64,000 nucleotides of DNA from a virus: IMG/VR virus record IMGVR_UViG_3300012983_003032. The stretch is one strand, 5' to 3'. Shown here in pieces: positions 6,830-57,914 of the stretch (the stretch's first letter is position 1; each line of letters begins with the position of its first letter). A program made the translations under genes and the position numbers. Under the pieces are notes generated by a model, which saw only the letters and a program-made list of their open reading frames with translations, had not been told where the DNA came from and did not search any database.

Positions 6830-7045
6830 ATGGCAGAAATTTCTATTGAAGAATATATGGAAAATACAAAACAATTGTCAGAAAAAGCAGTTGTTTTAGA
6901 CAATTTGTTATCTATATTAGACTCGTCAGATGGTCGTATTAGAGATATTAATTGGGTTGAAAATATTAGGGATATGTTAAACTCCTTAAAAGAAGAAGTA
7001 ACTGAGTTATTAGTGAAAAATGCAAAGGACTTCATAAACCCCTAA
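6830..7045 (+). CDS. hypothetical small acidic protein (71 aa)
   Basis: ORF follows the nuclease stop by 6 nt; helical, acidic. Confidence 0.35.
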   Translation: MAEISIEEYMENTKQLSEKAVVLDNLLSILDSSDGRIRDINWVENIRDMLNSLKEEVTELLVKNAKDFINP

Positions 7046-7059
7046 GTGAAAAATGTTAT

Positions 7060-7312
7060 TTTGAGTAATATGGTGTTCCACTACCAAGTTTGTTGAAGAC
7101 CTAGAGTCCAGTAAATAAAACGTTAAGAAACGAGGAAGATTATTCACAGGAACCGTAAAAGGTACGGGTGAAGTGGGGAACCCGCTTCCCGTTAGTACTG
7201 TGTCAGCATGAAGATAAAAGGACGCTTTTATTCTTACTGTAAGGCTGTAAGAAAGTAGGTGCTACCGACTACTTTAAGTTTTCTAGGAACATCGGGCATT
7301 TGTTTTATTTTG
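7060..7312 (+). ncRNA. GC-enriched structured non-coding region (candidate phage sRNA), function unknown
   Basis: No ORF of 60 aa or more on either strand. Local GC is clearly above the ~30% background. Several perfect hairpins: ccgta-aaagg-tacgg; cgggtgaag...cttcccg; ttcttac-N9-gtaagaa; agtag-N9-ctact. Followed by an intrinsic terminator. Confidence 0.3.
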
Positions 7313-7359
7313 CCTCTCTAAAAAACAGGTAATGCTGAATTAGAGAGGATTTTTCTTTT
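7313..7359 (+). terminator. rho-independent terminator (cctctcta-N20-tagagagg + attttTctttt)
   Basis: 8-bp perfect stem followed by T-run. Confidence 0.6.
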
Positions 7360-7381
7360 AAATACTTAATACTAAATATAT

Positions 7382-7597
7382 ATGACAATAGTACATAAAT
7401 CAGAAGAAATAATAAATGAAATAGTTAATAAGAATAATAATATTATTATTATAAATAATAACATCAACAATTGTAATGCTTGTAATTACTGTAATACTTG
7501 TAATAGTATTAATTCTTGTGATACTTGTAACGCTTGTAATAGTTGTCAAAGTGGATATAATCAGAATGACTTTGTACAAGACATAAAAGTTGTTTAA
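7382..7597 (+). CDS. questionable ORF encoding Asn/Cys repeat peptide (CNACNYCNTCNS...CDTCNACNSC)
   Basis: Coding potential arises from a 9-bp DNA tandem repeat. An equally repetitive ORF exists antisense (7400..7624). SD absent. Confidence 0.25.
   Translation: MTIVHKSEEIINEIVNKNNNIIIINNNINNCNACNYCNTCNSINSCDTCNACNSCQSGYNQNDFVQDIKVV
7472..7552. repeat. 9-bp tandem repeat, 9 units (tgtaatNNt consensus)
   Basis: tgtaatgct tgtaattac tgtaatact tgtaatagt attaattct tgtgatact tgtaacgct tgtaatagt tgtcaaagt. Confidence 0.8.
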
Positions 7598-7608
7598 GAT
7601 AGGAATAT

Positions 7609-8580
7609 ATGAAAAAATTAACAATTATAAGTTTGTTTTGTGATAAGGACTTTCAATTTTTACCTTCTTTATTAGATAATATAGATAAAAAAGTTATTTG
7701 TGATTTTGAACTAATTTTAGTTGATAATAGAGAAGAGTTTAAAAATACAGAAATACCCGCAATATCTATTTTTCAGAAATATCATTCTTGTAAAGTTTTA
7801 TCAAAAGGTTATAATTTATGTCAATTATTCTCAAAAAAGTATGCTTTAAGTTATGCAGTAGGTGAATATGTTTGGTTTATAGACGGAGATGACGAAATAG
7901 AGGACACAGTCTCTAATATAATTTTAAACATATGTGAAAGTGATATAATAGTATATAATTATAGATGTAATTTTAGTAAAGATGAAATATGTTATGAAGA
8001 AATAAGTAATAATTATCAAGTCTTAAAAAACTTGAATAGTTTTAGAAATAATGATTACTTAAAAAAAGTTACTCCAACTTGTTGGAATAAATGGTTTAAA
8101 AAAAGTTTATTAGATAGTGTATTTACTACTATACCAGATAATATAAAAGTTTCTTGTAATGAAGATGTATTTATTTGTAGTGCATCCCTAAATAGAGCAA
8201 ACTCAATCCAAGAAATACCTTTTTACGTTTATTGTAACTTTGCGTATAGAGGCATATCTAATAATAAATATATAGACTCTTTGGAAAAATTTAAAATAAT
8301 TTTTACAGGGTGGGAAGAGTCAATGAAACTTTTTAAAAAAGAGTTTCCGAATGATTGTGCATTGTTTAGTTATATGTCTAAAAGAAATAATGATATCTTA
8401 TATTTTTTACGTAGAGTTAAAGCGTCTTCTAAAGAATTATGGTCAGAAGAATTGGATTTTTTAAATAAAGTATTTAACTCTACTGAACTAATAGAGGCTA
8501 GTCATAAAATTAAAGATATAGTATTGCAAAGTTTTATAAAAAAATATTTTTCTGAAAATCTATATATTGATAAATATTGA
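7609..8580 (+). CDS. GT-A fold glycosyltransferase (family 2-like)
   Basis: N-terminal IISLFCDKD...ELILVDNREEF and DxD-type motif YVWFIDGDDEIE in the position expected for GT2 enzymes. Confidence 0.55.
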   Translation: MKKLTIISLFCDKDFQFLPSLLDNIDKKVICDFELILVDNREEFKNTEIPAISIFQKYHSCKVLSKGYNLCQLFSKKYALSYAVGEYVWFIDGDDEIEDTVSNIILNICESDIIVYNYRCNFSKDEICYEEISNNYQVLKNLNSFRNNDYLKKVTPTCWNKWFKKSLLDSVFTTIPDNIKVSCNEDVFICSASLNRANSIQEIPFYVYCNFAYRGISNNKYIDSLEKFKIIFTGWEESMKLFKKEFPNDCALFSYMSKRNNDILYFLRRVKASSKELWSEELDFLNKVFNSTELIEASHKIKDIVLQSFIKKYFSENLYIDKY

Positions 8581-8700
8581 AGCTATGCTTGGCTAAAGAC
8601 CAAGCATATTCCCTAACATTTTAGCGTGTTAGGAGATTGTTTCGTGCATTACCCTTAACTCGCATCTGCGAGTGCCAGATTAGCCAACAATGAAGTTGAC
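8581..8700 (-). ncRNA. putative omegaRNA (reRNA) scaffold overlapping tnpB 3' end and right-end hairpins
   Basis: By analogy with characterised TnpB systems, the guide RNA derives from the tnpB 3' end plus RE. Two hairpins are present at 8585-8633. Not verified. Confidence 0.3.
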
Positions 8701-10064
8701 AACACGCTACCAGTGTCTTTTGACAGCTTCTTTTCAGAAGCCTTTTCCTGGCTTTCCTCAGCTTCCCTGAGTACTTTTATAGCTTCAGTTTTTATATTAA
8801 CTGCTGCATTTTTGTCTCGTTGATGAATTTGTCCACATTCAGGACAAATCCAATTCTCCAAATGGAATTTCTTAACTTCTGGATTCTTAAAACCACAACA
8901 AGAACAAGTTTGTGAAGAGGCAAAGAATTTGTTTACTTTGATGATATGGCATCCATATCTTTCGCCTTTCCATTTTAATTTAGAAACGAAAGTTGACCAA
9001 GAGATGTCTTGGTAATTCTTTGCGTTTCTTGAGCCTTTCATCATTCCTTGGATAGACAAATCTTCAATTCCGATAAGTTGGTTTTCCTTTGTCAGTCTCA
9101 AAGATTCTTTTTCTATCCAATCTAAACGACAATTTGCAATATGCTCTTCCAAAGAAGCAATTTTGATTCTAATTTTTTCTTTGTTTTTAGAATTTTTAAT
9201 TTTTCTTGCATATTGTCTTTGAAGATGAGAAAGTTGAGAAAGATGTTCTTGTTTTTGCTTTTTGAATCCATAATCAGCTTTAGCTGACTTTTCGTTCGAG
9301 TCTATGTACATATCATCACAGTCAAAGTCTAAACCTATGACTTGGTTTTCGTCTAAGTCTTTAACTTTGACTTTCTGCTTAAAGTCTAAATTGACTTCAA
9401 ACAAAATTGTGATGTAATATTTTCCGTTAGGTGTTCTTGAGCAAGTGTATGAACAAACTTTAGTTCTGTTTTTATACCATTTTGGTAAGTTTCTGTGAGA
9501 AAACTTAATTTTCCCAATTTTGGGAAGTTCTACAGTTTTAGAGTTCCAATCTAAGAAGTTTTGTTTCATCTGTGAGTCTTTGAAGGAATTTTTAGCTTTC
9601 TTGGAATGGAATTTTGGCTTTTCTGATTTTCCGGAAAAGAAATTGCTATAAGCAGTTCTTAAATTCATAACTGCATTTGCTTTTCCTTGACCATTAGCTT
9701 CCTTCAAAAAAGGAAATTGTTGAGTCAATTCTGAAACTTTTGGTTCGTGGTATTTCTTATATTCAGAATTCGTTATTTTTCTAATAGCTTCAAGTTCGGC
9801 CTTTAGATTTTTGATTTCTTGCTTATTTTCTTTTGAATTTTTTTGCAGCTCTTCGAGCTTTTGAACTTTTTCGTAATAGTCAAATTCTTTTCTTAATGGA
9901 ACTATGGCGTTTTCGTAGAATTGATTTTTTGAATTTAAGAGGTAGTTGTAGATGAATCTAACACAACCAAAAGTCTTGTCCAATTTAGACTTTTGTTCTT
10001 GAGATGGGTTTAGTCTGAGCTTAAGTGCTAAATTTACACTTCTGTAACTAATTGTATTAGACAT
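8655..10064 (-). CDS. tnpB: TnpB (IS605 OrfB) RuvC-like RNA-guided endonuclease homolog
   Basis: 469 aa. RuvC-I (IGLDFD), RuvC-II (IGIEDL), zinc finger CSCCGF...CPECG and RuvC-III (HQRDKNAAVNI) in canonical order. Confidence 0.9.
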   Translation of the reverse strand: MSNTISYRSVNLALKLRLNPSQEQKSKLDKTFGCVRFIYNYLLNSKNQFYENAIVPLRKEFDYYEKVQKLEELQKNSKENKQEIKNLKAELEAIRKITNSEYKKYHEPKVSELTQQFPFLKEANGQGKANAVMNLRTAYSNFFSGKSEKPKFHSKKAKNSFKDSQMKQNFLDWNSKTVELPKIGKIKFSHRNLPKWYKNRTKVCSYTCSRTPNGKYYITILFEVNLDFKQKVKVKDLDENQVIGLDFDCDDMYIDSNEKSAKADYGFKKQKQEHLSQLSHLQRQYARKIKNSKNKEKIRIKIASLEEHIANCRLDWIEKESLRLTKENQLIGIEDLSIQGMMKGSRNAKNYQDISWSTFVSKLKWKGERYGCHIIKVNKFFASSQTCSCCGFKNPEVKKFHLENWICPECGQIHQRDKNAAVNIKTEAIKVLREAEESQEKASEKKLSKDTGSVLSTSLLANLALADAS

Positions 10065-10092
10065 TCAATAATCATTCCTTATTGTTTGTTTA

Positions 10093-10133
10093 GAAAGCTA
10101 TGAGAATCCCCATTCTTGTAGCTTTCGTTTTTT
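10093..10133 (+). terminator. plus-strand intrinsic terminator-like hairpin inside the IS, antisense to tnpB 5' region
   Basis: gaaagcta...tagctttc stem followed by gttttttc. Confidence 0.4.
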
Positions 10134-10331
10134 CTATTTAATTAGTAGAAACTTTTTGAAAAGGTTCTTATTTAATTAGTTAACTAGTTAACTACTTGTT
10201 AATATTTAATTTTAGAGCCATTCACGTGCTAAGCTAAAGACTTAGCACTTATCTGGCTCATTTTTTATATAATTTTTTAAATCTGTTAGTAAATATTGTT
10301 GTTTTTAAGAAATCTTCGTTAATATATTTTT

Positions 10332-10775
10332 ATGAGAATATCAGATTTTAATATAGAAATGAATTGGCCTAACGGTGGTGAAATAGTGTGGAGTAAATTA
10401 ACACCCCATGTAGTACCTTATTTGTCAGATGACTTTAAGTATGAGTCATTTTATCATCAGCAAGGTATATCAAAACCCATACCACCAAAATCTTTTAATC
10501 TTACTTTTAATTTAGGTCAAGATGCAGATATTTATAATTACCTAAAAAGCTTTTTTACGTCAAAGTCAAGAAAATATTATGGATTATACAGTCTTAAAGA
10601 TAAGGGATGGATATATATACATAATAGAATGTTGTATGCTAAAAATAAAAATGTACTTCGGAAAAAGTACATAAAAATGATTAATAATTTAATTCCATTA
10701 TATACTTATGAAGAAGATAGTTTGATTAAATATCAGCATGATAAAAATGTTGTTATTAAGCCATTTTGGTTGTAG
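10332..10775 (+). CDS. hypothetical protein (147 aa)
   Basis: ORF with coding-like composition. Confidence 0.45.
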   Translation: MRISDFNIEMNWPNGGEIVWSKLTPHVVPYLSDDFKYESFYHQQGISKPIPPKSFNLTFNLGQDADIYNYLKSFFTSKSRKYYGLYSLKDKGWIYIHNRMLYAKNKNVLRKKYIKMINNLIPLYTYEEDSLIKYQHDKNVVIKPFWL

Positions 10776-11275
10776 AGGTTCAAATGATTGGTGCAATATT
10801 CTGTTTAGGACTTGCTACTCTTATAAGTCACTATTTCATTAAGTCTCAATTAGACTTGGATTTAACAAAAGTTTGTAATGAACGAAATCAAAAAATTGAT
10901 AGAAGCCCAAATTGTAAAATATATATGATTTTGGCACACTATAATACCACACAAATGAAGATTCCTATGTCTTTTACGAGTTTAACTGATTATAAACCTC
11001 CTAGATGGGAGATATCTAAAAATCCATTTTCATTTAATGGTATGGAATTTAAATCCGCAGAAGTTAAACCTAATCCTTGGAGTCATCAAATAATTAATAA
11101 TGCAATTGAAACAATCAAGCAAAATTTTAGAATGACAGTGGGGATAAATACTGACGAAATTCAATATGACCTTTATCTATTAAGGGGTAATGATTTTTTG
11201 GACGGATACACAAGTAAAATTGTAAATGGCACAGAACAGGATATTAGAAATTACAGTTTTTCGGAAGATATGTGA
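10766..11275 (+). CDS. hypothetical protein with N-terminal TM helix (169 aa)
   Basis: N-terminal MIGAIFCLGLATLISHYFI hydrophobic segment. Confidence 0.4.
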   Translation: MVVEVQMIGAIFCLGLATLISHYFIKSQLDLDLTKVCNERNQKIDRSPNCKIYMILAHYNTTQMKIPMSFTSLTDYKPPRWEISKNPFSFNGMEFKSAEVKPNPWSHQIINNAIETIKQNFRMTVGINTDEIQYDLYLLRGNDFLDGYTSKIVNGTEQDIRNYSFSEDM

Positions 11276-11284
11276 GGTTAAAAA

Positions 11285-11761
11285 ATGAAACTGAGGACTA
11301 TTATTCTTACAGACCCCGTTAAAGCTGTAAATAAAATAAATGGTGAAAAAACACTCCAGTTCTTTGAAGAAAGTGTTATCAGCCATATAACAGACGTTAC
11401 CTCATTTTATGGAAATGAGTGTCTGTATTTCTTAGCCTATAAAGATAATAATCTTGTAGGTGTGGCAGTTGTGAGCGAAGAACGTACAGATATTAAAGGA
11501 CCTATGTCTGCCCCTTTTATTAGGGAGTTTGGTACAGTTAACTATACCAAAACTTGTAAGTATGCCAAAAAGGGGATAGGTGAGGAACTTTTAAATCATA
11601 TTATAAAACGAGTTGGGAACAGACTTACATTATCCTGTTTAGACAGTAATTCCGAACAATTTTGGAGATATATCGGTGAAAAGAAAGGATTGAAAGTTGA
11701 AGAAATTGGAAGAACTGTATGGGGTACACCAACTTTGTATTTTCGGGATTTTAAGGGTTAA
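11285..11761 (+). CDS. GNAT-family N-acetyltransferase (probable)
   Basis: SD GAGGT upstream. Acetyl-CoA binding-like KKGIGEELLNHII motif (R/Q-x-x-G-x-G/A) in a beta-alpha context. Confidence 0.5.
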   Translation: MKLRTIILTDPVKAVNKINGEKTLQFFEESVISHITDVTSFYGNECLYFLAYKDNNLVGVAVVSEERTDIKGPMSAPFIREFGTVNYTKTCKYAKKGIGEELLNHIIKRVGNRLTLSCLDSNSEQFWRYIGEKKGLKVEEIGRTVWGTPTLYFRDFKG

Positions 11762-11794
11762 AATTGCTATATTATAAATGTATAGGAGAAAATT

Positions 11795-13498
11795 ATGGCA
11801 AAGTCACAGAAAAAAATTAAAGAATGTAAACATAATGGCACTCGTTTTCCAGACCTTTTTAAGAGTAGAGGATTTACTCTTGCGGGTGTGTCACTTTATA
11901 ACAGTGATGTTGACTCTGCAGAAGAAATGCTTTGGCATTATGCAGCAAAGTTAGACACAGACTATGTTAAGAATGAAGTTTTTAACAAAAACTTTTATTT
12001 GTGTCTTAAAGAACAACTTCCTGAAACTTTAAGAAATATAAAGTTTCCTGATGGATTTATGTCTGTTCTTACAGAAATGAAGAAGTTGCAGGAAAAAGAA
12101 AAAGAAGAAAAAACACAGTATAAAAAAGACCATAAAGAAGAACTTAAAAAAGAGGCAGAAGACCTTAAAGAAGAATATGGATATGCAATTCTTAATGGTG
12201 AAAAACAGCCTCTTATGTCAAATTTGGTAGAAGGCCCTGGGATTTTTATTGCTCGTGGAGATGCACCCCTTCTTGGTATGTGGAAATACCGTACTATGCC
12301 AGAAGATGTAACAATTAACTATATTGGACCAAAAGAAGAAACTCCAAAAGCACCTGAAGGACATCATTGGAAGAAAGTAACTAATAATCAGGTATATTAT
12401 ATTGCTTCTTATGAAGTAGATATCGGACACATTACAACAAAGAATAAAGAAATTCGTTTTGGTAGTGGTTCTTCTGTAAAGGCTGATGCAGACCAAAAGA
12501 AGTTTGATAAGGCAGTAAATCTTTTACAGCATAAAAAAGAAATGGAACAGTATATTCGTGAGAACCTTACAAACCCTGACCCTAAAATTGCTGAGTGTGC
12601 TCTTATTTCTTGGTTATTGCAAGAAACAGGTATTCGTATAGGTAATTCTAAAAATGTCGAAATTGAAGCCGATACTGTTGGGGCGTCTACTTTGAAAAAA
12701 GAAAATATTTGGGCAGATGACGGAAAACTTTATCTTAATTTTATTGGTAAAGATTCGATTGTTTATAAAAATGAAATTGAAGTACCAAAGTATATTGAAA
12801 CTGCAATTAATCGAAAAGTTAAAAAGGCTAAAGATGGTGAACAGATTTTCAGTGTAGACTCAAATGATGTTAACAAATTCTTAGGAGCTTGTGTGGAAGG
12901 ATGTACTCCAAAGTTGTGGCGTACTGCAATTGCAACTGAACTTCTTGTAAATGCCTTTAAGGACCAACACGTTAAAAAGTCTATGACTGTAACTGAAAAA
13001 CTTCGTGCTTTTGACCTTGCAAATCTTGAAGTTGCGAAAAAATTAAATCATAAAAAAGCTGTATCAAAGAATTATGACTCACAGATTGAAAAGTTGGATT
13101 CTACTATTGAATCAGATGAGAATAAGTTTAATGAACTTAAAATTAAATTAACTGCTGAAATTAAAGAGCTTGATAAAAAAATTAAAAAAGCAAAAGAACT
13201 TGGTCTTGATAGAAATGTAAAATCTTTTAAGGAAACTAAAAAGAAAAAACAGGAACGTCTTACAAAGGCAGAAGAAAGTCTTAAAAACAAAAAGTTTAAG
13301 AGAGAATTCAAAGAACAGACAATGGATATTGCCATTGGTACGTCAAGAACAAATTATTGTAGTCCAAAAATTGCTTATAGTATCTGTAAGGACTTGGATA
13401 TTCCAATTGAAAAGATTTATTCTAAGTCTCTTTTGGAAAAGTTTAAGTGGGCAGAAAATGTAAGTAAGGATTATTGGAGAAAGTACCCAGATGTATAG
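11795..13498 (+). CDS. type IB DNA topoisomerase, eukaryotic (nuclear TOP1)-like with linker domain
   Basis: Recalled human TOP1 segments align along the protein: LKEEYGYAILNG...EGPGIFIARGDAPLLGMWKYRTMPEDVTINY with the TOP1 core; ADTVG and FIGKDSI; KLWRTAIATELL with KVFRTYNAS; and the catalytic-Tyr region AIGTSRTNYCSPKIAYSICKDLDIPIEKIYSKSLLEKFKWA with [41 protein letters not shown]. A ~100-aa coiled-coil linker precedes the active-site Tyr. Confidence 0.9.
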   Translation: MAKSQKKIKECKHNGTRFPDLFKSRGFTLAGVSLYNSDVDSAEEMLWHYAAKLDTDYVKNEVFNKNFYLCLKEQLPETLRNIKFPDGFMSVLTEMKKLQEKEKEEKTQYKKDHKEELKKEAEDLKEEYGYAILNGEKQPLMSNLVEGPGIFIARGDAPLLGMWKYRTMPEDVTINYIGPKEETPKAPEGHHWKKVTNNQVYYIASYEVDIGHITTKNKEIRFGSGSSVKADADQKKFDKAVNLLQHKKEMEQYIRENLTNPDPKIAECALISWLLQETGIRIGNSKNVEIEADTVGASTLKKENIWADDGKLYLNFIGKDSIVYKNEIEVPKYIETAINRKVKKAKDGEQIFSVDSNDVNKFLGACVEGCTPKLWRTAIATELLVNAFKDQHVKKSMTVTEKLRAFDLANLEVAKKLNHKKAVSKNYDSQIEKLDSTIESDENKFNELKIKLTAEIKELDKKIKKAKELGLDRNVKSFKETKKKKQERLTKAEESLKNKKFKREFKEQTMDIAIGTSRTNYCSPKIAYSICKDLDIPIEKIYSKSLLEKFKWAENVSKDYWRKYPDV

Positions 13499-13802
13499 AT
13501 TAAAATACACATATATGCAAATTAAAAAATACTTCCAGCAGAAAAAGTGTAAGCATAAGTACATTCTTATAAGGGACGTACATGGCGACGAGATAAACAC
13601 TTACTGCCAAAGTGTACGAAGTATTTGGAAATGTTTATAGCGTGTTGCGTAAAAGTCCCACATCTTTAGTGTGGGACATGTAGCAACACAAAGTCGTACT
13701 TTTGCTTTACGCCCAATGCTACTAAATATATAAAAGTTTATGCAAAATACAAAGAAAACCTAAAATGTATAAACTTTTGAGATAATATAATATTAAATAG
13801 AT

Positions 13803-14231
13803 ATGGCAAGAAAACTTGAAAGTTCAGCACATTCAAAGCATCTCATAATGTACCACTTGATATTTGTGGCAAAGTATAGAAGGAAGATATTTTCTTTCCA
13901 CGACTTTGGTGACGCTTTGAAACAAAAGTTTCTTGACATTTCTTCAAACTATGAGTTTTCAATAGATACAATAGACTTGGACTACTCTAAGCCAGACCAT
14001 ATACACATTCTTGTAAGAAGTATTCCTACATTGTCACCAGACCAAATAGTAAGAGTTCTGAAACAAGAAGCAAATATCTGGGCTTGGGATAACTATGGTC
14101 CTTGGCTCAAGAAGTTTTACCATAGAAGTCATCATCTCTTTACACGTGGATACTATTGTGGTTCAGTAGGAAATGTTTCCGCAGATACAGTAGCAAAATA
14201 CTTAGAAGACCAAGGGAGGAACGGATGCTAA
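13803..14231 (+). CDS. tnpA: IS200-like Y1 (HUH) transposase TnpA
   Basis: 142 aa. HUH motif HIHILV and C-terminal catalytic Tyr region (TVAKYLEDQ), size typical of IS200 TnpA. Confidence 0.85.
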   Translation: MARKLESSAHSKHLIMYHLIFVAKYRRKIFSFHDFGDALKQKFLDISSNYEFSIDTIDLDYSKPDHIHILVRSIPTLSPDQIVRVLKQEANIWAWDNYGPWLKKFYHRSHHLFTRGYYCGSVGNVSADTVAKYLEDQGRNGC

Positions 14232-15421
14232 AAGCGTATAAATATCGTATCTATCCTACTCAAGAACAAGAAACATTTCTATGTAAAGAACTCGGTTTGA
14301 AAAGACTCTATTGGAACATCTCACTTGCAAATAAGAATGCAGACCATTCTTACAAGCTTACTTCATACAAAGAAACATTTTCAAAATATAAGCCAGAAGC
14401 ACTTGAATGGTGTAAAGAAATAGACAGTACTGCTATGGCAGATGTTTGGAATGACTTGACACAAGCGTTCAGAAACTTCTTTGCATCTTGCAATGGTACA
14501 AGAAAAGGAAAGTTCGTAAAGCCACCAAAGTTCAAGTCTAAAAAGAATATGAAAGAGTCTATTGGCTACACTGCTATGGCAAAGCCAAAGTTTGTAAACG
14601 GAAAACTTTTCATAACAAGAAAACTTGGACTTCTAAAAGGTGCATACTATTGTCAGTTCTGTGAAGGAAAGTTAAAGAACGTAACTATAAGCAGAACTGC
14701 TACTGGTAAATGGTTTGTATCTATTTGTGTTGAGAAGAAAGACGAACCAAAGAACAATAACGGCAAAGCGATAGGAATAGACTGGAACTGTAGAGATGAC
14801 GTTTTTCTTACTTTAAGTGATGGCACGAAAGTCAAGTGTCCTCGCTTCCTAAGAGAAAAGGAAAAGCAGCTAGCTCACTATCAGAAACTCATGTCTAAAA
14901 AGTTTGTGAAAGGAAAACAAAAACAGTCTCAAAACTATTACAAAGCAAAATATAAAGTTGCTAAACTTCACGAAAAGGTTTCTTGGCAAAGACAAGACTG
15001 GTTGCATAGGTTGTCTTACGACTTGGCACAAAAGTATCAGTATGTCATTGTCGAAGACATCAACTTGCAGTCTATGGCACAAATGCATCACGGAAGAGCA
15101 GTTGGTGACCAAGGGTTTGGAATGCTAAGGAGTATGATAGCTTACAAAACTACTTTAGTGAAAGTTTCAGCAAAGAATACTTCTAAGACTTGTCATACTT
15201 GTGGGTATGTAAACCCAAAGGTTGTTTTAGGTGTTGAACAATGGAAATGCCCTGTCTGTTCTTCTGAACATGACAGAGATATAAATGCAGCCCTGAACAT
15301 CTTGAATAAAGGTGTTACTAGTCTGGGCGTAGTAGGCAGGGAACGAGCCGAAAGTACAAATGCCTGTGGAGTGCCACGAAGCACTGCGAAGCAGGAAGTC
15401 CACGTTGCCATCGAGCCTTAG
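14225..15421 (+). CDS. tnpB: TnpB (IS605 OrfB) RuvC-like nuclease
   Basis: Starts MLKAYKYRIYPT (classic TnpB N-terminus); the table ORF from 14156 is a TTG extension. Contains EDINLQ (RuvC-II), zinc finger CHTCGY...CPVCS and RuvC-III HDRDINAALNI. Confidence 0.9.
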   Translation: MLKAYKYRIYPTQEQETFLCKELGLKRLYWNISLANKNADHSYKLTSYKETFSKYKPEALEWCKEIDSTAMADVWNDLTQAFRNFFASCNGTRKGKFVKPPKFKSKKNMKESIGYTAMAKPKFVNGKLFITRKLGLLKGAYYCQFCEGKLKNVTISRTATGKWFVSICVEKKDEPKNNNGKAIGIDWNCRDDVFLTLSDGTKVKCPRFLREKEKQLAHYQKLMSKKFVKGKQKQSQNYYKAKYKVAKLHEKVSWQRQDWLHRLSYDLAQKYQYVIVEDINLQSMAQMHHGRAVGDQGFGMLRSMIAYKTTLVKVSAKNTSKTCHTCGYVNPKVVLGVEQWKCPVCSSEHDRDINAALNILNKGVTSLGVVGRERAESTNACGVPRSTAKQEVHVAIEP

Positions 15422-15480
15422 TTTCGGCTCGTAAGCAACTATGGAATGTCCCAGGTCTTTAGCCTGGGGCAGCGTTCAAT
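15300..15480 (+). ncRNA. putative omegaRNA scaffold (tnpB 3' end plus RE hairpin)
   Basis: Inferred from TnpB biology. The RE hairpin sits 30 nt after the tnpB stop. Confidence 0.3.
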
Positions 15481-15504
15481 ACATGAAAATTACGAGGTGT
15501 TGAA

Positions 15505-15669
15505 ATGACAATTATTTTAGAAGACAGTGATATCCGTAAGATTATTGCAGAAAAGTTTAATGTAGACCCAGAAGATATAGATTTTTCAGCTAAAGAAAAA
15601 GAAGAAGACTGTGGAATCGTAGACGTTAAATTCACTGCAGTTTCTGCAGTAATTACCAAGGAGGTGTAA
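15505..15669 (+). CDS. hypothetical small acidic protein (54 aa; not in ORF table)
   Basis: ATG at 15505 preceded by GAGGTG. Ends TAA 2 nt before the next gene's GTG. Confidence 0.35.
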   Translation: MTIILEDSDIRKIIAEKFNVDPEDIDFSAKEKEEDCGIVDVKFTAVSAVITKEV

Positions 15670-15670
15670 T

Positions 15671-15988
15671 GTGAAAAAAAGAAATATTGGCCTTGTAACT
15701 AATAGTGGTTCTAGTGATTGGAGTAATTTTAACGAACTTTCCTATGCAGACCTTATAGCCTCATTAAAGAGTGACTATTTTTTCTTTAGAGTATCTGACC
15801 CAATGAATAATGGACATAGTGCAGAATATAGAGAAATCTTAAAAACTTGGTGGGGTGTAAAAGTAAAAACAGTTGGGTATATAGACTTGGACAAAGTAGT
15901 ATTTGACGGAAAAACATACTATTTTCCTGAGTCATCAAGAACTTACGGATGGAATTTATGCCAAAAGAAGAAAAAGAAAAAAGATTAA
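15671..15988 (+). CDS. hypothetical protein (GTG start, Lys-rich C-terminus)
   Basis: Strong SD AAGGAGG 7 nt upstream of GTG. Confidence 0.45.
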   Translation: MKKRNIGLVTNSGSSDWSNFNELSYADLIASLKSDYFFFRVSDPMNNGHSAEYREILKTWWGVKVKTVGYIDLDKVVFDGKTYYFPESSRTYGWNLCQKKKKKKD

Positions 15989-16272
15989 ATAAAGTATTTT
16001 TTCTTGAAAATGAGTGTACTAATCAAATCTATAAAGTTACAACAGAAACAAGTAAACTTGCCATTCAACTGGCAGAAGATTGTGAGTCTTCTGTATATGA
16101 TGCATGGGCAAATGACAATATTGACATATGGGGTAATTGGATTGGCAATATCAAAGTTGTAGACTTTACTAAAATTGATGAAGACGCGTCTATCTGGGAT
16201 TTGGACGATGACTATTCTTTTAAATGGTGTGAATGGCCAAAAGAAAAGAAAAAGAAAGATTTTAACTTTTAA
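15949..16272 (+). CDS. hypothetical protein, probable tandem paralog of 15671..15988 (similar W-x-C...KKKKD C-terminus)
   Basis: Overlaps the upstream gene by 40 nt in the -1 frame. The 3' ends of both ORFs share a ~25-nt poly-purine repeat (ccaaaagaaRagaaaaagaaaRagat). Confidence 0.4.
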   Translation: MEFMPKEEKEKRLNKVFFLENECTNQIYKVTTETSKLAIQLAEDCESSVYDAWANDNIDIWGNWIGNIKVVDFTKIDEDASIWDLDDDYSFKWCEWPKEKKKKDFNF

Positions 16273-16298
16273 AAAACCACCCAAAAGGGTGGTTTTTG
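16271..16298. terminator. bidirectional intrinsic terminator (aaccaccc-aaaa-gggtggtt, flanked by A- and T-runs)
   Basis: Perfect 8-bp stem between convergent genes. Confidence 0.6.
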
Positions 16299-16301
16299 TA
16301 T

Positions 16302-17075
16302 TTAAAGACTAGAAATAGGATTAAATAATTCTTCTGTATTAGAAACAGCATTAAACATATCTAAAATATCTTTGTTTGTTGGCATTTCTTTGGAAGTGAA
16401 TAGATTGTCTTCACTTTCAAAAACATTAGTATCTATCTTGTTAAAGGCTTCTTTAACCTCTTCTTCTTTCATTTCTTTATATACTCTATCCGCCTCAGTT
16501 TTAATGTCTTCCTTATTAATTTCTATATCGGATTTTGACTCTTCGGGAATATCTTCTGCATAATCAACAAGATAGAAAGACTTTAACATAAAATCATATG
16601 GGTCAATTTCTTTATATTGGTTTAAATGACAAAACATGTAAGGTTTTATAAAAAGCTTATCATTATCCCCCAGTTCATTTTTAGCATATGTACCCCATGA
16701 AGTAGATGTATCTATATTGACAGTAGCATATAAAACATCTCCTCTAAGTTCCATATTTGAAACCATACCTATTTTAGTATTACCTTGGTCTTTTTGTCCG
16801 TATATAGGTAGGTCATAAAGACCTTCATCTATTACTTTTTCCCACAATTCACGAGGGTAGGTAATGTGTGTTTTAAGTGGAACACCACACTGCATTAAAG
16901 GTATAGTGTACTCAAAGTATCTAGGGAATAAAGACCTCATTTTAATAGTTTCTTTATTATCTAAATTTTCTACAGTTTTAAAAAGAAATCTTGGATTTTC
17001 TTTCATTGAATTAAAATCTCCTTTAAGTGTTACTTTTACGGTGTCTGCATTTATAAGTTCTGAATATACTGGCAT
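16302..17075 (-). CDS. hypothetical protein (257 aa)
   Basis: Intact ORF, divergent from the structural operon. Confidence 0.55.
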   Translation of the reverse strand: MPVYSELINADTVKVTLKGDFNSMKENPRFLFKTVENLDNKETIKMRSLFPRYFEYTIPLMQCGVPLKTHITYPRELWEKVIDEGLYDLPIYGQKDQGNTKIGMVSNMELRGDVLYATVNIDTSTSWGTYAKNELGDNDKLFIKPYMFCHLNQYKEIDPYDFMLKSFYLVDYAEDIPEESKSDIEINKEDIKTEADRVYKEMKEEEVKEAFNKIDTNVFESEDNLFTSKEMPTNKDILDMFNAVSNTEELFNPISSL

Positions 17076-31166: not shown

Positions 31167-31279
31167 TTGTATTTTTATTTTTAAAAATAATTATTTTTTT
31201 AACTACCCCACACGTAAAATCAAATATTTAAGATTTGTTAATATATTTTTATAAATATAAAATTTTGGAGGTTAAAGCA

Positions 31280-32773
31280 ATGTTATTTATTGCAGGTATT
31301 GTAGCAGTAGTACTTTTGATATTACTGTTTATTACATCTTACATTAAGGCTTCACCTGATGAGGCTTTAATTGTTTCAGGTCTTCGTAAAAAACCAAAGA
31401 TTATTATTGGTAAGTCGGGATTTAGAATTCCTTTCTTGGAAAAGAAAGACCGACTCTCTCTTAAACTTATCCCTATTGATGTAAAAACCAGCTCGTCTGT
31501 ACCGACTGCAGACTATATCAACATTAATGTTGACGCAGTAGTAAACGTAAAAGTTTCAGATGACTTTGAAAAAATTAATCTTGCAGCACAGAACTTCTTG
31601 AATAAAGATACTGAAAAAATTGGTGCAATTGCCCGCGAGGTACTTGAGGGTAATATGCGTGAGATTGTAGGACAGATGACATTGGAACAGATGGTTTCTG
31701 ACCGACAAACTTTTGCCGAAAAAGTAAAGGATAATGCAGCTCCAGACCTTGCAAAGATGGGATTGGATATTGTTTCTTTTAATGTTCAGAACTTTATTGA
31801 TAATAATAATGTTATTGAAGACCTTGGTGTTGATAACATTACTAAAATTCGTAAAAAGGCTGCAATTGCAAAGGCACAGTCTGAAAAGGAAATTGCTGTT
31901 GAACAAGCTAAGGCTCGTAAAGAGGCAAATGACGCAAAGATTGAGTCTGATACACAGATTGCTATTAAAGAAAATGCACTTGCATTGAAGAAGTCTGAAT
32001 TGGACGCAAAAGCGGGTACTGAAAAGGCAAAGGCAGATGCAGCATATAAGATTCAACTTGAGGAACAGAGGAAAACTCTTGAAATTACAACTGCAAACGC
32101 AAATATTGCAAAGCAGGAAAAAGAGGTAGAAATCCGTCGTAAAGAAGTAGAAGTCCAGGAACAAACTCTTGACGCACAAATCAAGAAACAAGCAGAGGCA
32201 GATAAGTATGCAGCATTACAAAAAGCCGACGCAGATTTGTATACTCGTCAGAAAGAGGCTGAGGCAAGAGCATTTGAACTTCAAAAACAAGCTGAGGCAG
32301 AGGCTTATCAGAGACAGAAGAAAGCAGAGGCAGATAAAGCTGCAATGGAAAATGAAGCAACTGGTAAGAAAGCTCTTGCAGAGGCTGTTCAGGCACAAGG
32401 TGAGGCAGAAGCCGAGGCAATTAAAGCTAAACTTGTTGCAGAAGCTGATGGTATGCGTGAAAAGGCAGAGGCACTTAAAGAATATGGTGATGCTGCTAAA
32501 CAACAAATGCAACTTGACGCACTTAAAGTTTACTTTGAACAGTTGCCAAAGATTGCAGAGGCAGCAGGTAAAGCATACCAGAGTGTTGACAAGATTTATA
32601 TGTACGGTGGAGACTCTTCAAAGTTGCAAAGTGATATTATGAAGAATGTTACACAGGTTTCAGAGGGTCTTGGTCAGACAATGGGTATTGACCTTAAAAC
32701 ACTTCTTGGTGCTTTCGTAGGTAGTAAACTTGCTGGCAAAGGCACAGACTTAGAATTGCCTAAGACAGAATAA
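31280..32773 (+). CDS. SPFH (band-7/flotillin-like) membrane protein with long coiled-coil EA-rich tail
   Basis: N-terminal TM MLFIAGIVAVVLLILLFI, then a YqiK/flotillin-like SPFH core (ALIVSGLRKKPKIIIGKSGFRIPFLEKKDRLSLKLIPIDV...INVDAVVNVKV), then a ~250-aa KAEA-repeat coiled coil. ATG at 31280 after GGAGG; the table ORF from 31235 is an extension. Confidence 0.75.
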   Translation: MLFIAGIVAVVLLILLFITSYIKASPDEALIVSGLRKKPKIIIGKSGFRIPFLEKKDRLSLKLIPIDVKTSSSVPTADYININVDAVVNVKVSDDFEKINLAAQNFLNKDTEKIGAIAREVLEGNMREIVGQMTLEQMVSDRQTFAEKVKDNAAPDLAKMGLDIVSFNVQNFIDNNNVIEDLGVDNITKIRKKAAIAKAQSEKEIAVEQAKARKEANDAKIESDTQIAIKENALALKKSELDAKAGTEKAKADAAYKIQLEEQRKTLEITTANANIAKQEKEVEIRRKEVEVQEQTLDAQIKKQAEADKYAALQKADADLYTRQKEAEARAFELQKQAEAEAYQRQKKAEADKAAMENEATGKKALAEAVQAQGEAEAEAIKAKLVAEADGMREKAEALKEYGDAAKQQMQLDALKVYFEQLPKIAEAAGKAYQSVDKIYMYGGDSSKLQSDIMKNVTQVSEGLGQTMGIDLKTLLGAFVGSKLAGKGTDLELPKTE

Positions 32774-56240: not shown

Positions 56241-57914
56241 ATGGGAAAAATCCTAAAATTTGGAAATGACGCAAGAAGTTTAGTTCTTGACGGTATTAAT
56301 GAACTTGAAGAGGCAGTAACTTGTACACTTGGCCCAAAAGGACGTACTGTTATTTTAGACAGTGGTAATGGTCATCCTATTGTTACTAAAGACGGTGTTT
56401 CTGTTGCAAAGTTCATTGACTTTTCTGATAAATATAAAAATATTGGTGCAAGTTTCATACAAGAAGCAGCAAGAAAAACCAATGCTGTTGCAGGTGATGG
56501 TACTACAACTGCAACTCTTATCACATCGGAATTATGTAAAGCAGGACATGAATTGGTTTCTCAAAAATTTGACGCAGTTGACGTTAAAAAAGGATTTGAG
56601 AAAGCTAAAGATGCAGTAATTGAAGTATTAAATACTCAAAAAAGAGTTATTTCTGAGGAAGACGATATTTTACACATTGCAACTATTTCTGCAAATAATG
56701 ACGAAGAAATTGGTCAATTTATCTGTGACGCTTTTACACATATTGGAGAAGGTGGTATTGTTGGTGCAATGGACGCACATAACAGAACAGGAAAGACATC
56801 TATTACATACTCTAATGGTATGGAGTTTTTGAAGGGATTTTTCTCTTCTTCGGTAGTTAATACCGATATGGAAACTTGTTGTTTTGAAAATCCTAGATAC
56901 CTTATTTATGGTAATAAGGTTGATGATTTTAAGAGTATTGCACAAATTATACAGATGGCTAACAAAAATAACGAAAGTCTTGTTATTATCGCCCCTTATT
57001 TTGAAGACACATTCCAAGAAAACTTTATTACAAATGTTGAAAAAGGATATATTAGTGCAGTAGCAGTTGTTGCCCCTGGAAATAGTAGAGACGATATAAA
57101 TGAAAACCTTGGTGATATTGCTGCTTTGGTAGGTGCAACTATTATTGAGGGAAAGGGTAAAGACTCAATCTCTATAGATAAGTTTGAATACAAACATTTA
57201 GGTTCTTCTGAGTCAATTACAGTTGCTCGTGGTAAAACAACTATCACAGGTGGTAAGGGCACTAAGGAGGATATAGACAAAAGGGTTGCAGATATTAAAA
57301 AACTTATTGAAGGTAGTGAGGCAGACGAAACATTTAAGACAGATTATGAATTAGATATGTTAAAAGAACGTATTGCAAAACTTTCAGGTGGTATAGCAAC
57401 AATTCATATTGGTGCATTCTCAGATATCGAAGCAAAGGAAAAGAAAGATAGATATGAAGATGCTATCAATGCCGTAAATGCTGCAATTCGTGACGGTATT
57501 ATCGCAGGTGGTGGTGCTGGTCTTTTACATGCTGTAAAGACTGTTGCAAATAGTCATAAACCATTAGAAAACCCTACACAGGAAGTGGGATTCCAAAAAT
57601 TTCTTAAAATTATGGAAATGCCAGCAAGAAGAATTATCGAGTCTACTGGTAAAGACCCAGGTTATTATGCAGAAAAGATTAAGGAAAGTGATAATCTCTC
57701 TTATGGATTTAATGCAAAACTTGAAGAATTTTCAGACGACCTTTATAGGGACGGAGTAGTAGACCCAGTAAAAGTAACTGAGGCAGCATTGTCATACGGT
57801 ACTTCTGTAGCTGGAACTTTTATTACTTCTTCATGTGTTATTACTTCTGACGTTTATAATTGTAGGGTTTCTGCAAATGACCCTATTATGAGTGAGGAGG
57901 TAATATATGAGTAA
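56241..57914 (+). CDS. groEL: GroEL/Hsp60-family chaperonin
   Basis: KFGNDAR...LGPKGRTVIL...PIVTKDGVSVAKFIDF...AGDGTTTATL...ATISANNDEEIG tracks E. coli GroEL over the equatorial domain. 557 aa. No GroES-like gene adjacent. Confidence 0.9.
   Translation: MGKILKFGNDARSLVLDGINELEEAVTCTLGPKGRTVILDSGNGHPIVTKDGVSVAKFIDFSDKYKNIGASFIQEAARKTNAVAGDGTTTATLITSELCKAGHELVSQKFDAVDVKKGFEKAKDAVIEVLNTQKRVISEEDDILHIATISANNDEEIGQFICDAFTHIGEGGIVGAMDAHNRTGKTSITYSNGMEFLKGFFSSSVVNTDMETCCFENPRYLIYGNKVDDFKSIAQIIQMANKNNESLVIIAPYFEDTFQENFITNVEKGYISAVAVVAPGNSRDDINENLGDIAALVGATIIEGKGKDSISIDKFEYKHLGSSESITVARGKTTITGGKGTKEDIDKRVADIKKLIEGSEADETFKTDYELDMLKERIAKLSGGIATIHIGAFSDIEAKEKKDRYEDAINAVNAAIRDGIIAGGGAGLLHAVKTVANSHKPLENPTQEVGFQKFLKIMEMPARRIIESTGKDPGYYAEKIKESDNLSYGFNAKLEEFSDDLYRDGVVDPVKVTEAALSYGTSVAGTFITSSCVITSDVYNCRVSANDPIMSEEVIYE

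Follow-up and report, generated by a model that had tools for sequence, protein, structure and literature searches.

The 64,000-nucleotide viral sequence IMGVR_UViG_3300012983_003032 (hereafter the window; 32.5% G+C) contains two insertion sequences of the IS200/IS605 type, E1 and E2, which appear to share one common transposase-recognition system and to reside in a probable huge phage. We assign this reading a probability of about 85%. E2 is an autonomous element with genes for the transposase TnpA and the predicted RNA-guided nuclease TnpB2, and E1 encodes only a TnpB (TnpB1; Table 1). An original prediction, made from the nucleotide sequence alone, had located the pair at 8581-15480, within 1-4 nt of the outer ends now mapped to 8577 and 15479.

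Each tnpB open reading frame (ORF) is bracketed by a pair of subterminal hairpins that form at both ends of the element on one strand, and every time the loop reads TCTTTAG on the tnpB coding strand. The termini (AGCG.../...TTCAA) do not form inverted repeats. The window contains 37 copies of TCTTTAG, compared to an expected 17.9 ± 4.5. Using a script that scores flank complementarity, we detected stems of at least six perfect pairs at only four of these copies, with 0-4 pairs at the other 33. The z-scores for folding of all four ends as single-stranded DNA range from -3.0 to -5.2. These measurements bear out the expectation of four hairpins with differing stems, an identical 7-nt loop and a consistent orientation relative to tnpB. 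Both right ends (REs) follow the arrangement GAAT, 8-bp stem with TCTTTAG loop, AGC(G), TTCAA; in E2 the hairpin is followed by AGCG and TTCAA (15475-15479). Stable G+C-rich stem-loops in intergenic DNA could also be phage transcription terminators or regulatory hairpins with no relation to transposition. We consider this reading extremely improbable and have rejected it: a downstream T-run is absent at all four hairpins, a terminator scan lists none of the four, the hairpins move together with tnpB into unrelated genomes, and the loop is unchanged over 24 stems.

The ends of E2 were established by means of vacant alleles, found through exact-protein look-ups of neighbouring genes. E2 is present in the window and in contigs L044-L048, and absent from L015 and L049-L052 (five samples), where the gene for topoisomerase IB (Topo IB) is followed by 196 nt and then by a 54-residue ORF. 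Over 0.4-2.5 kb of flanking sequence, vacant and filled alleles are distinguished by 0-2 substitutions, and the phage genomes concerned by 0-2 SNPs per kilobase. With a slash marking each junction, the vacant allele reads ...GTTTAT-ATTGTGGCAAAATAATACATAGAC-GTTTAT/TACATGAAAATT... and the filled allele ...GTTTAT/AGCGTG...(E2)...GCGTTCAA/TACATGAAAATT..., so that TTTAT/TACATG is converted to TTTAT/E2/TACATG without target duplication. This comparison defines E2 as the 1841-nt segment that lies 3′ of TTTAT and terminates with TTCAA. An RE ending with TTCAATA (TA follows TTCAA in five of six E1/E2 copies) was discarded, since other family members vary at these two bases and the vacant allele fits TTCAA only. 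Copies of E2 with 96% nucleotide identity also occur as blocks of about 1.85 kb (blastn) between unrelated flanks in L006 and L007, and relatives of TnpB2 in IMG/VR viral contigs are 96% identical at the amino acid level. Such copies in unrelated viral contexts, together with the vacant allele, mark E2 as a discrete mobile unit.

The proteins of both elements look intact. TnpA scores 91.9 bits against PF01797 (cut-off 23) and 93.1 bits against NF033573 (cut-off 55), and its HIH and RGYY motifs are conserved relative to the solved Y1 transposases 2ec2 and 2f4f; E1 codes for no TnpA. TnpB1 and TnpB2 both match PF12323, PF01385, PF07282 and NF040570 above cut-offs. When aligned with each other and with ISDra2-type structures, both retain the RuvC Asp/Glu/Asp triad and the CxxC...CxxC zinc finger, so that a disabled triad, raised beforehand as a counter-case, does not apply. 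Relative to ISDra2-type TnpB, TnpB1 contains about 60 extra Lys/Glu-rich residues (~58-117) after the N-terminal helix-turn-helix, which split the alignment into residues 13-57 and 118-430.

The ends of E1 were derived from breakpoints. Homology to L003, L004 and L005 (81-86% nucleotide identity) is confined to a block of about 1.7 kb corresponding to E1 (blastn), with unrelated flanks, which makes E1 a discrete mobile unit as well; relatives of TnpB1 in IMG/VR viral contigs are 85-89% identical in amino acid sequence. In L005 the target is TTTAT instead of TATAT, with a compensating guide AAAA. Mapping of exact ends and empty sites, as proposed in the original prediction, could be completed for E2, and for E1 it yielded ends without a vacant allele: none was found in 24 contigs (14 + 10) that cover either side of the element. 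Vacant sites of the L003 and L005 copies were likewise absent from IMG/VR. A search of metagenome_contigs for the vacant E1 site also returned nothing, a null that is uninformative because this collection equally missed the 29-nt unit, which is known to occur in a JGI contig. Relatives that might have carried vacant sites were sought in IMG/VR as well; those of the glycosyltransferase encoded next to E1 are only 28-35% identical, and none were found for Topo IB. E1 appears fixed.

E1 had been described as inserted exactly after the stop codon of this glycosyltransferase gene. Instead, the stop TGA (8578-8580) falls within E1: the ORF ends with ...GAT AAA TAT TGA, and the T of TAT plus the TGA (8577-8580) come from the E1 terminus TTCAA, read as its reverse complement. 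We infer that the sequence prior to insertion was ...GAT AAA TA/A, with an original TAA stop split by E1, and that the insertion extended the glycosyltransferase by one Tyr. A hairpin of 15 pairs followed by GTTTTTTCTA (10093-10126, plus strand) lies in the left-end region of E1, antisense to tnpB1. It resembles a terminator and could stop glycosyltransferase read-through before it exits E1.

The recognition system shared by E1 and E2 extends to a wider family. A scan of IMG/VR for the RE signature that placed no constraint on the stems found 13 loci; each has complementary stems (13/13, nine stem sequences), and the bases after TTCAA vary. When species-representative genomes (596 Gb) were scanned in the same way, nine hits resulted, of which six are stemless chance matches and three look real (one Oscillospiraceae contig, two Methanovirga contigs). 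The viral relatives L022, L027 and L031 carry tnpB only, have a TCTTTAG hairpin at either end and encode TnpBs 60-67% identical to TnpB2, and TCTTTAG loops also occur at both ends of elements with TnpAs of 71% and 61% identity. The loop stays the same in all 24 distinct hairpins that were compared; their stem cells form standard pairs in 98.4% of cases (52% in shuffles, 28-40% in slid controls), and compensatory changes occur at 8/8 stem pairs. Left-end (LE) hairpins had been chosen with a filter of at least 6-7 pairs, and the search patterns themselves contained the loop; pairing played no part in the selection of the RE stems from the IMG/VR scan. Since the stems are perfect palindromes and the loop is asymmetric and invariant, the TCTTTAG loop is probably the determinant of both identity and strand. 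A protein search with TnpA produced 95 homologue clusters, all but one purely metagenomic and one with an NCBI source; taken with the outcome of the two scans, this suggests that the lineage may circulate mainly in phages. Two loci of Candidatus Methanovirga basalitermitum (L036 250-477, L041 552-779) contain pairs of TCTTTAG hairpins separated by about 200 nt, with AGCTTCAA after the second hairpin, and in L041 a TnpA fragment lies near the pair; by their sequence these pairs are candidate non-autonomous family derivatives in a methanogen, similar to miniature inverted-repeat transposable elements.

Cleavage sites and guides in this family follow a simple pairing rule. The elements insert 3′ of a (T/A)-rich NNNAT without target duplication. 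For a site N1N2N3-A-N5, the guide, that is the four nucleotides 5′ of the hairpin foot, equals the reverse complement of N1N2N3 followed by the complement of N5. Five co-varying combinations of site and guide obey this rule: at LEs, TTTAT with AAAA (E2, L022, L027, L033, L074 and both ends in L070), TATAT with ATAA (E1, L032, L030) and TTCAT with GAAA (L080, L081); at REs, TTCAA with GAAT (E1, E2) and TTCAC with GAAG (L008, L074-77, L079-82). TTTAT, TATAT or TTCAT stands directly 5′ of every LE examined except that of L031. The TTCAC/GAAG variant, which is what the rule predicts, was found through protein homology instead of the end pattern: in relatives of TnpA and also in L008, which was reached by way of TnpB homology. 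The right end of L008 had been taken for decayed, an interpretation that we dropped once this variant was recognised. The pair L076 and L077, with the same LE flank and different RE flanks, was not used, as the contig ends 21 nt past the element and could be a chimera.

E1 and E2 are related through their ends and not through their cargo, as judged from the sequences, since TnpB1 and TnpB2 are only 27% identical. The proposed single family is borne out by the common loop, the RE guide GAAT and the RE terminus TTCAA, and the two LE pairs of target and guide differ by compensatory change. Because RE recognition is identical and the LE differs by a compensatory pair, it is plausible that the TnpA of E2 processes and mobilises E1 in trans. 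Alternatively, E1 could be an immobile relic whose ends resemble those of E2 by common descent only and on which the E2 transposase cannot act, and which persists as a neutral insertion or is restored by its own TnpB. The filled state of E1 in all contigs spanning the site, the missing vacant alleles of its copies in IMG/VR, the low identity between the TnpBs, and the spacer lengths and LE guide that depart from those of E2 all favour this alternative. We nevertheless find it doubtful, because E1-type copies with intact ends occur in three unrelated viral contexts, which indicates that the E1 type has moved, because the RE guide, loop and terminus of E1 are those of E2, and because the LE difference is compensatory, as recognition by DNA pairing would predict.

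The two elements lie in opposite orientation, head to head, around a 3.4-kb segment that encodes Topo IB and a GNAT protein, as had been predicted. By geometry alone, two family members around 3.4 kb might form a composite transposon that carries this segment. Single-strand transposition requires an LE upstream of an RE on one strand, however, and with the LEs of E1 and E2 pointing at each other, neither strand presents the order LE, segment, RE. Moreover, genomes without E2 (L015) contain the segment unchanged. On these grounds a composite element was excluded, and we give it next to no weight. The window contains no further copy of E1 or E2, and the exact TnpB1 and TnpB2 are confined to these loci. 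Outside the window, at about 247-255 kb of the 425-kb contig described below, locus L070 (3820-4450) encodes a truncated TnpA of 104 residues, 78% identical to the TnpA of E2. It is enclosed by a pair of LE-type TCTTTAG hairpins that face each other and both have TTTAT and guide AAAA. The phage genome thus has at least one or two more decayed members of the family.

Three precise deletions adjoin element ends and stop at TTTAT. First, 29 nt between two GTTTAT sites of the vacant allele (L015 2486-2520) are missing beside the LE of E2 in the filled allele (13634-13638), which means that the present filled allele cannot have given rise to the vacant allele by excision. Second, in another phage, E2 lies 3′ of TTTAT in L007, and in the otherwise identical L006 the LE is joined to a TTTAT 305 nt upstream (2105-2414). 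Third, in a further lineage, the right end (TTCAC/) and ...GGTTTAT/ATCC are 984 nt apart in L082 (L080 vs L082 3720-4703), and in L080 the right end is fused straight to ATCC, with breakpoints that share no microhomology. This pattern suggests adjacent deletion mediated by TnpA, in which intramolecular strand transfer would link a cleaved element end with a target-like site cleaved on the same strand. Slippage at TTTATA repeats could explain the 29-nt and 305-nt cases, but not the 984-nt case. We found no description of adjacent deletion of this kind in the searchable literature.

The original prediction also envisaged an omegaRNA at the RE of each element. For the E2 group, covariation points to a structured 3′ RNA, a putative omegaRNA: in an RNAalifold analysis of six sequences with TnpBs 60-100% identical, the last ~190 nt are predicted to form 71 pairs, 21 of them with compensatory changes, and the stems extend past the stop codon and include the RE hairpin. 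Support for the E1 group, in which four close copies could be aligned, is weak (2 of 42 pairs compensatory). The suggested covariance-model search did not recover an omegaRNA; at E ≤ 1, Rfam gave no match in positions 8000-16500 to an omegaRNA, to a group I intron or to any further family of relevance. The vacant E2 alleles consist of TTTAT followed by TACATGAAAATTACGAGGTG, in other words a transposon-associated motif (TAM) with a perfect target for the predicted guide, and in the filled allele TACATGAAAATTACGAGGTG comes after TTCAA, which is not a TAM. TnpB has been reported to cut this configuration of TAM and guide match, thereby reinstating or spreading the transposon (homing model, PMC13565253).

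These observations can be combined into a mechanism. By analogy with IS608 and ISDra2, the TnpA of E2 would excise and insert the top strand, reading the loop for identity and strand while DNA-DNA pairing picks the cleavage site; it should consequently process the ends of E1 too. The circle junctions are predicted as ...GCGTTCAA/AGCGTGTTGC for E2 and ...AGCTTCAA/AAAAAATGAG for E1, the clean donor joint as GGAAATGTTTAT/TACATGAAAA, the vacant E1 site as ATTGATAAATA/ATATAATTTTTT, and an undeleted filled allele as ...ACATAGACGTTTAT/AGCGTGTTGC. Each TnpB would use an RNA from its own 3′ end and RE, with the flanking 16-20 nt as guide, and cut sites composed of TAM and guide match, as in vacant alleles; recombination with a filled genome would then restore or spread the element. 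We propose, tentatively and as a possibility short of an even chance, that this lineage shapes phage genomes in two so far undocumented ways, through adjacent deletions by TnpA and through a homing drive by TnpB2 between co-infecting phages. The homing part is proposed because a natural vacant allele provides a perfect TAM and guide target in otherwise identical genomes. The polymorphism of E2 could also reflect ordinary transposition or general recombination between phage lineages, with TnpB inactive or without a role. TnpA alone is reported to be enough for insertion of IS608 and ISDra2 (PMC8612924), and nuclease activity of TnpB is here a prediction. We consider this alternative unlikely in view of the position of TTTAT in the vacant allele directly before 20 nt that match the RE flank perfectly, the intact catalytic residues of TnpB2, the 3′ RNA structure maintained by covariation, and the homing results published for IS605-family TnpB.

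Several observations weigh against two mobile elements with a common recognition system in a huge phage. The distance from the LE start to the hairpin is 18 nt in E1 and 16 nt in E2, and the spacing between the RE hairpin and TTCAA is 3 nt and 4 nt, respectively. L031 violates the pairing rule (TTGAT with GAAA), and the GAAT/TTCAA right ends from the pattern scan were selected by the search pattern and are not independent evidence for it. The filled E2 allele is not a simple insertion into the observed vacant allele, as it also lacks the 29 nt beside the LE, and neither a circle junction nor a clean excision product (GTTTAT/TACATG) was seen. The missing vacant E1 allele leaves no sign of current mobility of E1, and covariation in its RNA is weak, as noted above. 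Finally, the phage identity of the 425-kb contig is supported indirectly.

Table 1. Positions of E1, E2 and selected genes in the window.
Feature	Position	Strand	Remarks
Predicted E1 guide/RE flank TATTTATCAATATATAGATT	8557-8576	-	3′ of RE terminus; antisense to last glycosyltransferase codons
E1, tnpA-less (IS1341-like) IS200/IS605 element, TnpB only	8577-10266 (1690 nt)	-	Breakpoints vs L003/L004/L005 and guide/cleavage rule
E1 right-end cleavage motif TTCAA	8577-8581	-	Two bases beyond TTCAA vary among family members
Predicted E1 omegaRNA scaffold (tnpB1 3′ end and RE)	8577-8719	-	Stem-loops conserved in four close copies
E1 right-end hairpin	8585-8607	-	8-bp stem ATGCTTGG-TCTTTAG-CCAAGCAT; guide GAAT 8608-8611 on 5′ side
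tnpB1, 469 residues	8655-10064	-	RuvC D/E/D and CxxC..CxxC intact
E1 left-end hairpin	10226-10248	-	GTGCTAAG-TCTTTAG-CTTAGCAC; guide ATAA 10249-10252; outer helix GAGCCA/TGGCTC
E1 target/TAM TATAT, outside element	10267-10271	-	Same in window, L003, L004
Topo IB, eukaryote/archaeal-type, full-length	11795-13498	+	Topoisom_I_N, Topoisom_I and Topo_C_assoc domains
E2 target/TAM TTTAT, outside element	13634-13638	+	
E2, autonomous IS200/IS605 element (tnpA and tnpB)	13639-15479 (1841 nt)	+	L006/L007 copies and vacant allele
E2 left-end hairpin	13655-13677	+	GTCCCACA-TCTTTAG-TGTGGGAC; guide AAAA 13651-13654; outer helix GTGTTGC/GCAACAC
tnpA, Y1 HUH transposase, 142 residues	13803-14231	+	HIH motif, RGYY tyrosine region
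tnpB2, 398 residues	14225-15421	+	ATG start per gene callers; RuvC D/E/D and zinc finger intact
Predicted E2 omegaRNA scaffold (tnpB2 3′ end and RE)	15290-15479	+	RNAalifold, 6 relatives
E2 right-end hairpin	15448-15470	+	GTCCCAGG-TCTTTAG-CCTGGGGC, one G.T pair; guide GAAT 15444-15447
Predicted E2 guide/RE flank TACATGAAAATTACGAGGTG	15480-15499	+	Directly after TTTAT in vacant alleles
SPFH/flotillin-like protein	31235-32773	+	
GroEL chaperonin	56241-57914	+	

The exact element proteins were found on a metagenomic contig of 425,174 nt, a probable huge phage, and on many shorter contigs of related samples. The GroEL encoded in the window is 37% identical to GroELs of large phages; thymidylate synthase, NAD synthetase and a helicase are encoded as well, and tail-like matches are weak. 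No tRNAs are present in the window. A PDB sequence search together with PHROGs and Pfam, covering 30 ORFs, identified neither a capsid protein nor another structural hallmark, and most of the remaining large ORFs (up to 1781 residues) have no match in Pfam, PHROG or phage databases. Comparison to 50,697 deposited phage genomes gave zero matches, both by megablast of positions 7000-17000 and by tblastn of the 645-residue, 1781-residue and Topo IB ORFs. Topo IB has its best solved matches in 6z01 (E = 6e-64) and human Topo I (E = 4e-61), and an enzyme of this type is unusual in a phage. Between convergent genes at 16240-16331, a hairpin AAAACCACCC-AAAA-GGGTGGTTTT with A and T runs on either side looks like a bidirectional intrinsic terminator; it is the origin of the sole weak Rfam matches in 8000-16500.

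Elements of this kind are not rare: 416 records of deposited phage genomes contain TnpB homologues and 87 contain TnpA homologues, all less than 60% identical to the E1 and E2 proteins. With IS200/IS605 elements and TnpB common in deposited phages, the present case is ordinary in kind and unusually well resolved. It offers two compact TnpB nucleases for which TAMs (TATAT, TTTAT), guides and RNA scaffolds are all predicted, and a transposase for which identity seems to reside in a 7-nt loop and site choice in a pairing rule, which could easily be tested and possibly reprogrammed. Vacant and filled E2 alleles in near-identical phages would provide a natural system for TnpB-driven homing between co-infecting phages, so far a theoretical possibility (PMC13565253). 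The signature of adjacent deletion, if true, would represent a new way for these elements to erode the genomes of phages.

Among characterised systems, IS608 (ISHp608) from Helicobacter pylori resembles E2 in its combination of a Y1 HUH TnpA with TnpB, its subterminal hairpins on a single strand and its 4-nt guides. IS608 also inserts 3′ of a short target without duplication and has an RE that ends with TCAA (PMC3201880); its cleavage sites TTAC and TCAA are recognised by the four bases 5′ of each hairpin and not by the protein (PMC3201880). Homology between the TnpAs is detectable (2a6m, E = 9e-5). IS608 differs in its target (TTAC instead of TTTAT in E2 and TATAT in E1), its LE distance (19 nt compared with 16-18 nt) and the distance from the RE hairpin foot to TCAA (10 nt compared with 4-5 nt). 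Its hairpins are imperfect and an extrahelical T sets the strand (PMC5027513), whereas the stems of E1 and E2 are perfect and the loop is the sole feature that is both asymmetric and invariant. The LEs of E1 and E2 also contain an extra outer helix.

ISDra2 from Deinococcus radiodurans uses a pentanucleotide target ending with AT (TTGAT) that doubles as the TAM of its TnpB, and by analogy the guides of E1 and E2 are expected to derive from the RE flank. Alignments of TnpB1 and TnpB2 with the structures 8bf8, 8exa and 8h1j span almost the whole of both proteins (E = 1e-40 to 2e-45). The differences from ISDra2 lie in the TAM itself, the insertion in TnpB1, a 3′ RNA without a match to an Rfam model, and residence in a phage instead of a chromosome. 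In having tnpB and the ends of the family but no tnpA, E1, L022, L027 and L031 resemble IS1341-type or palindrome-associated derivatives and must, by analogy with what has been proposed for IS1341-type elements, depend on TnpA provided in trans. E1 differs from those elements in having E2, an autonomous partner that matches it, in the same genome at a distance of 3.4 kb.

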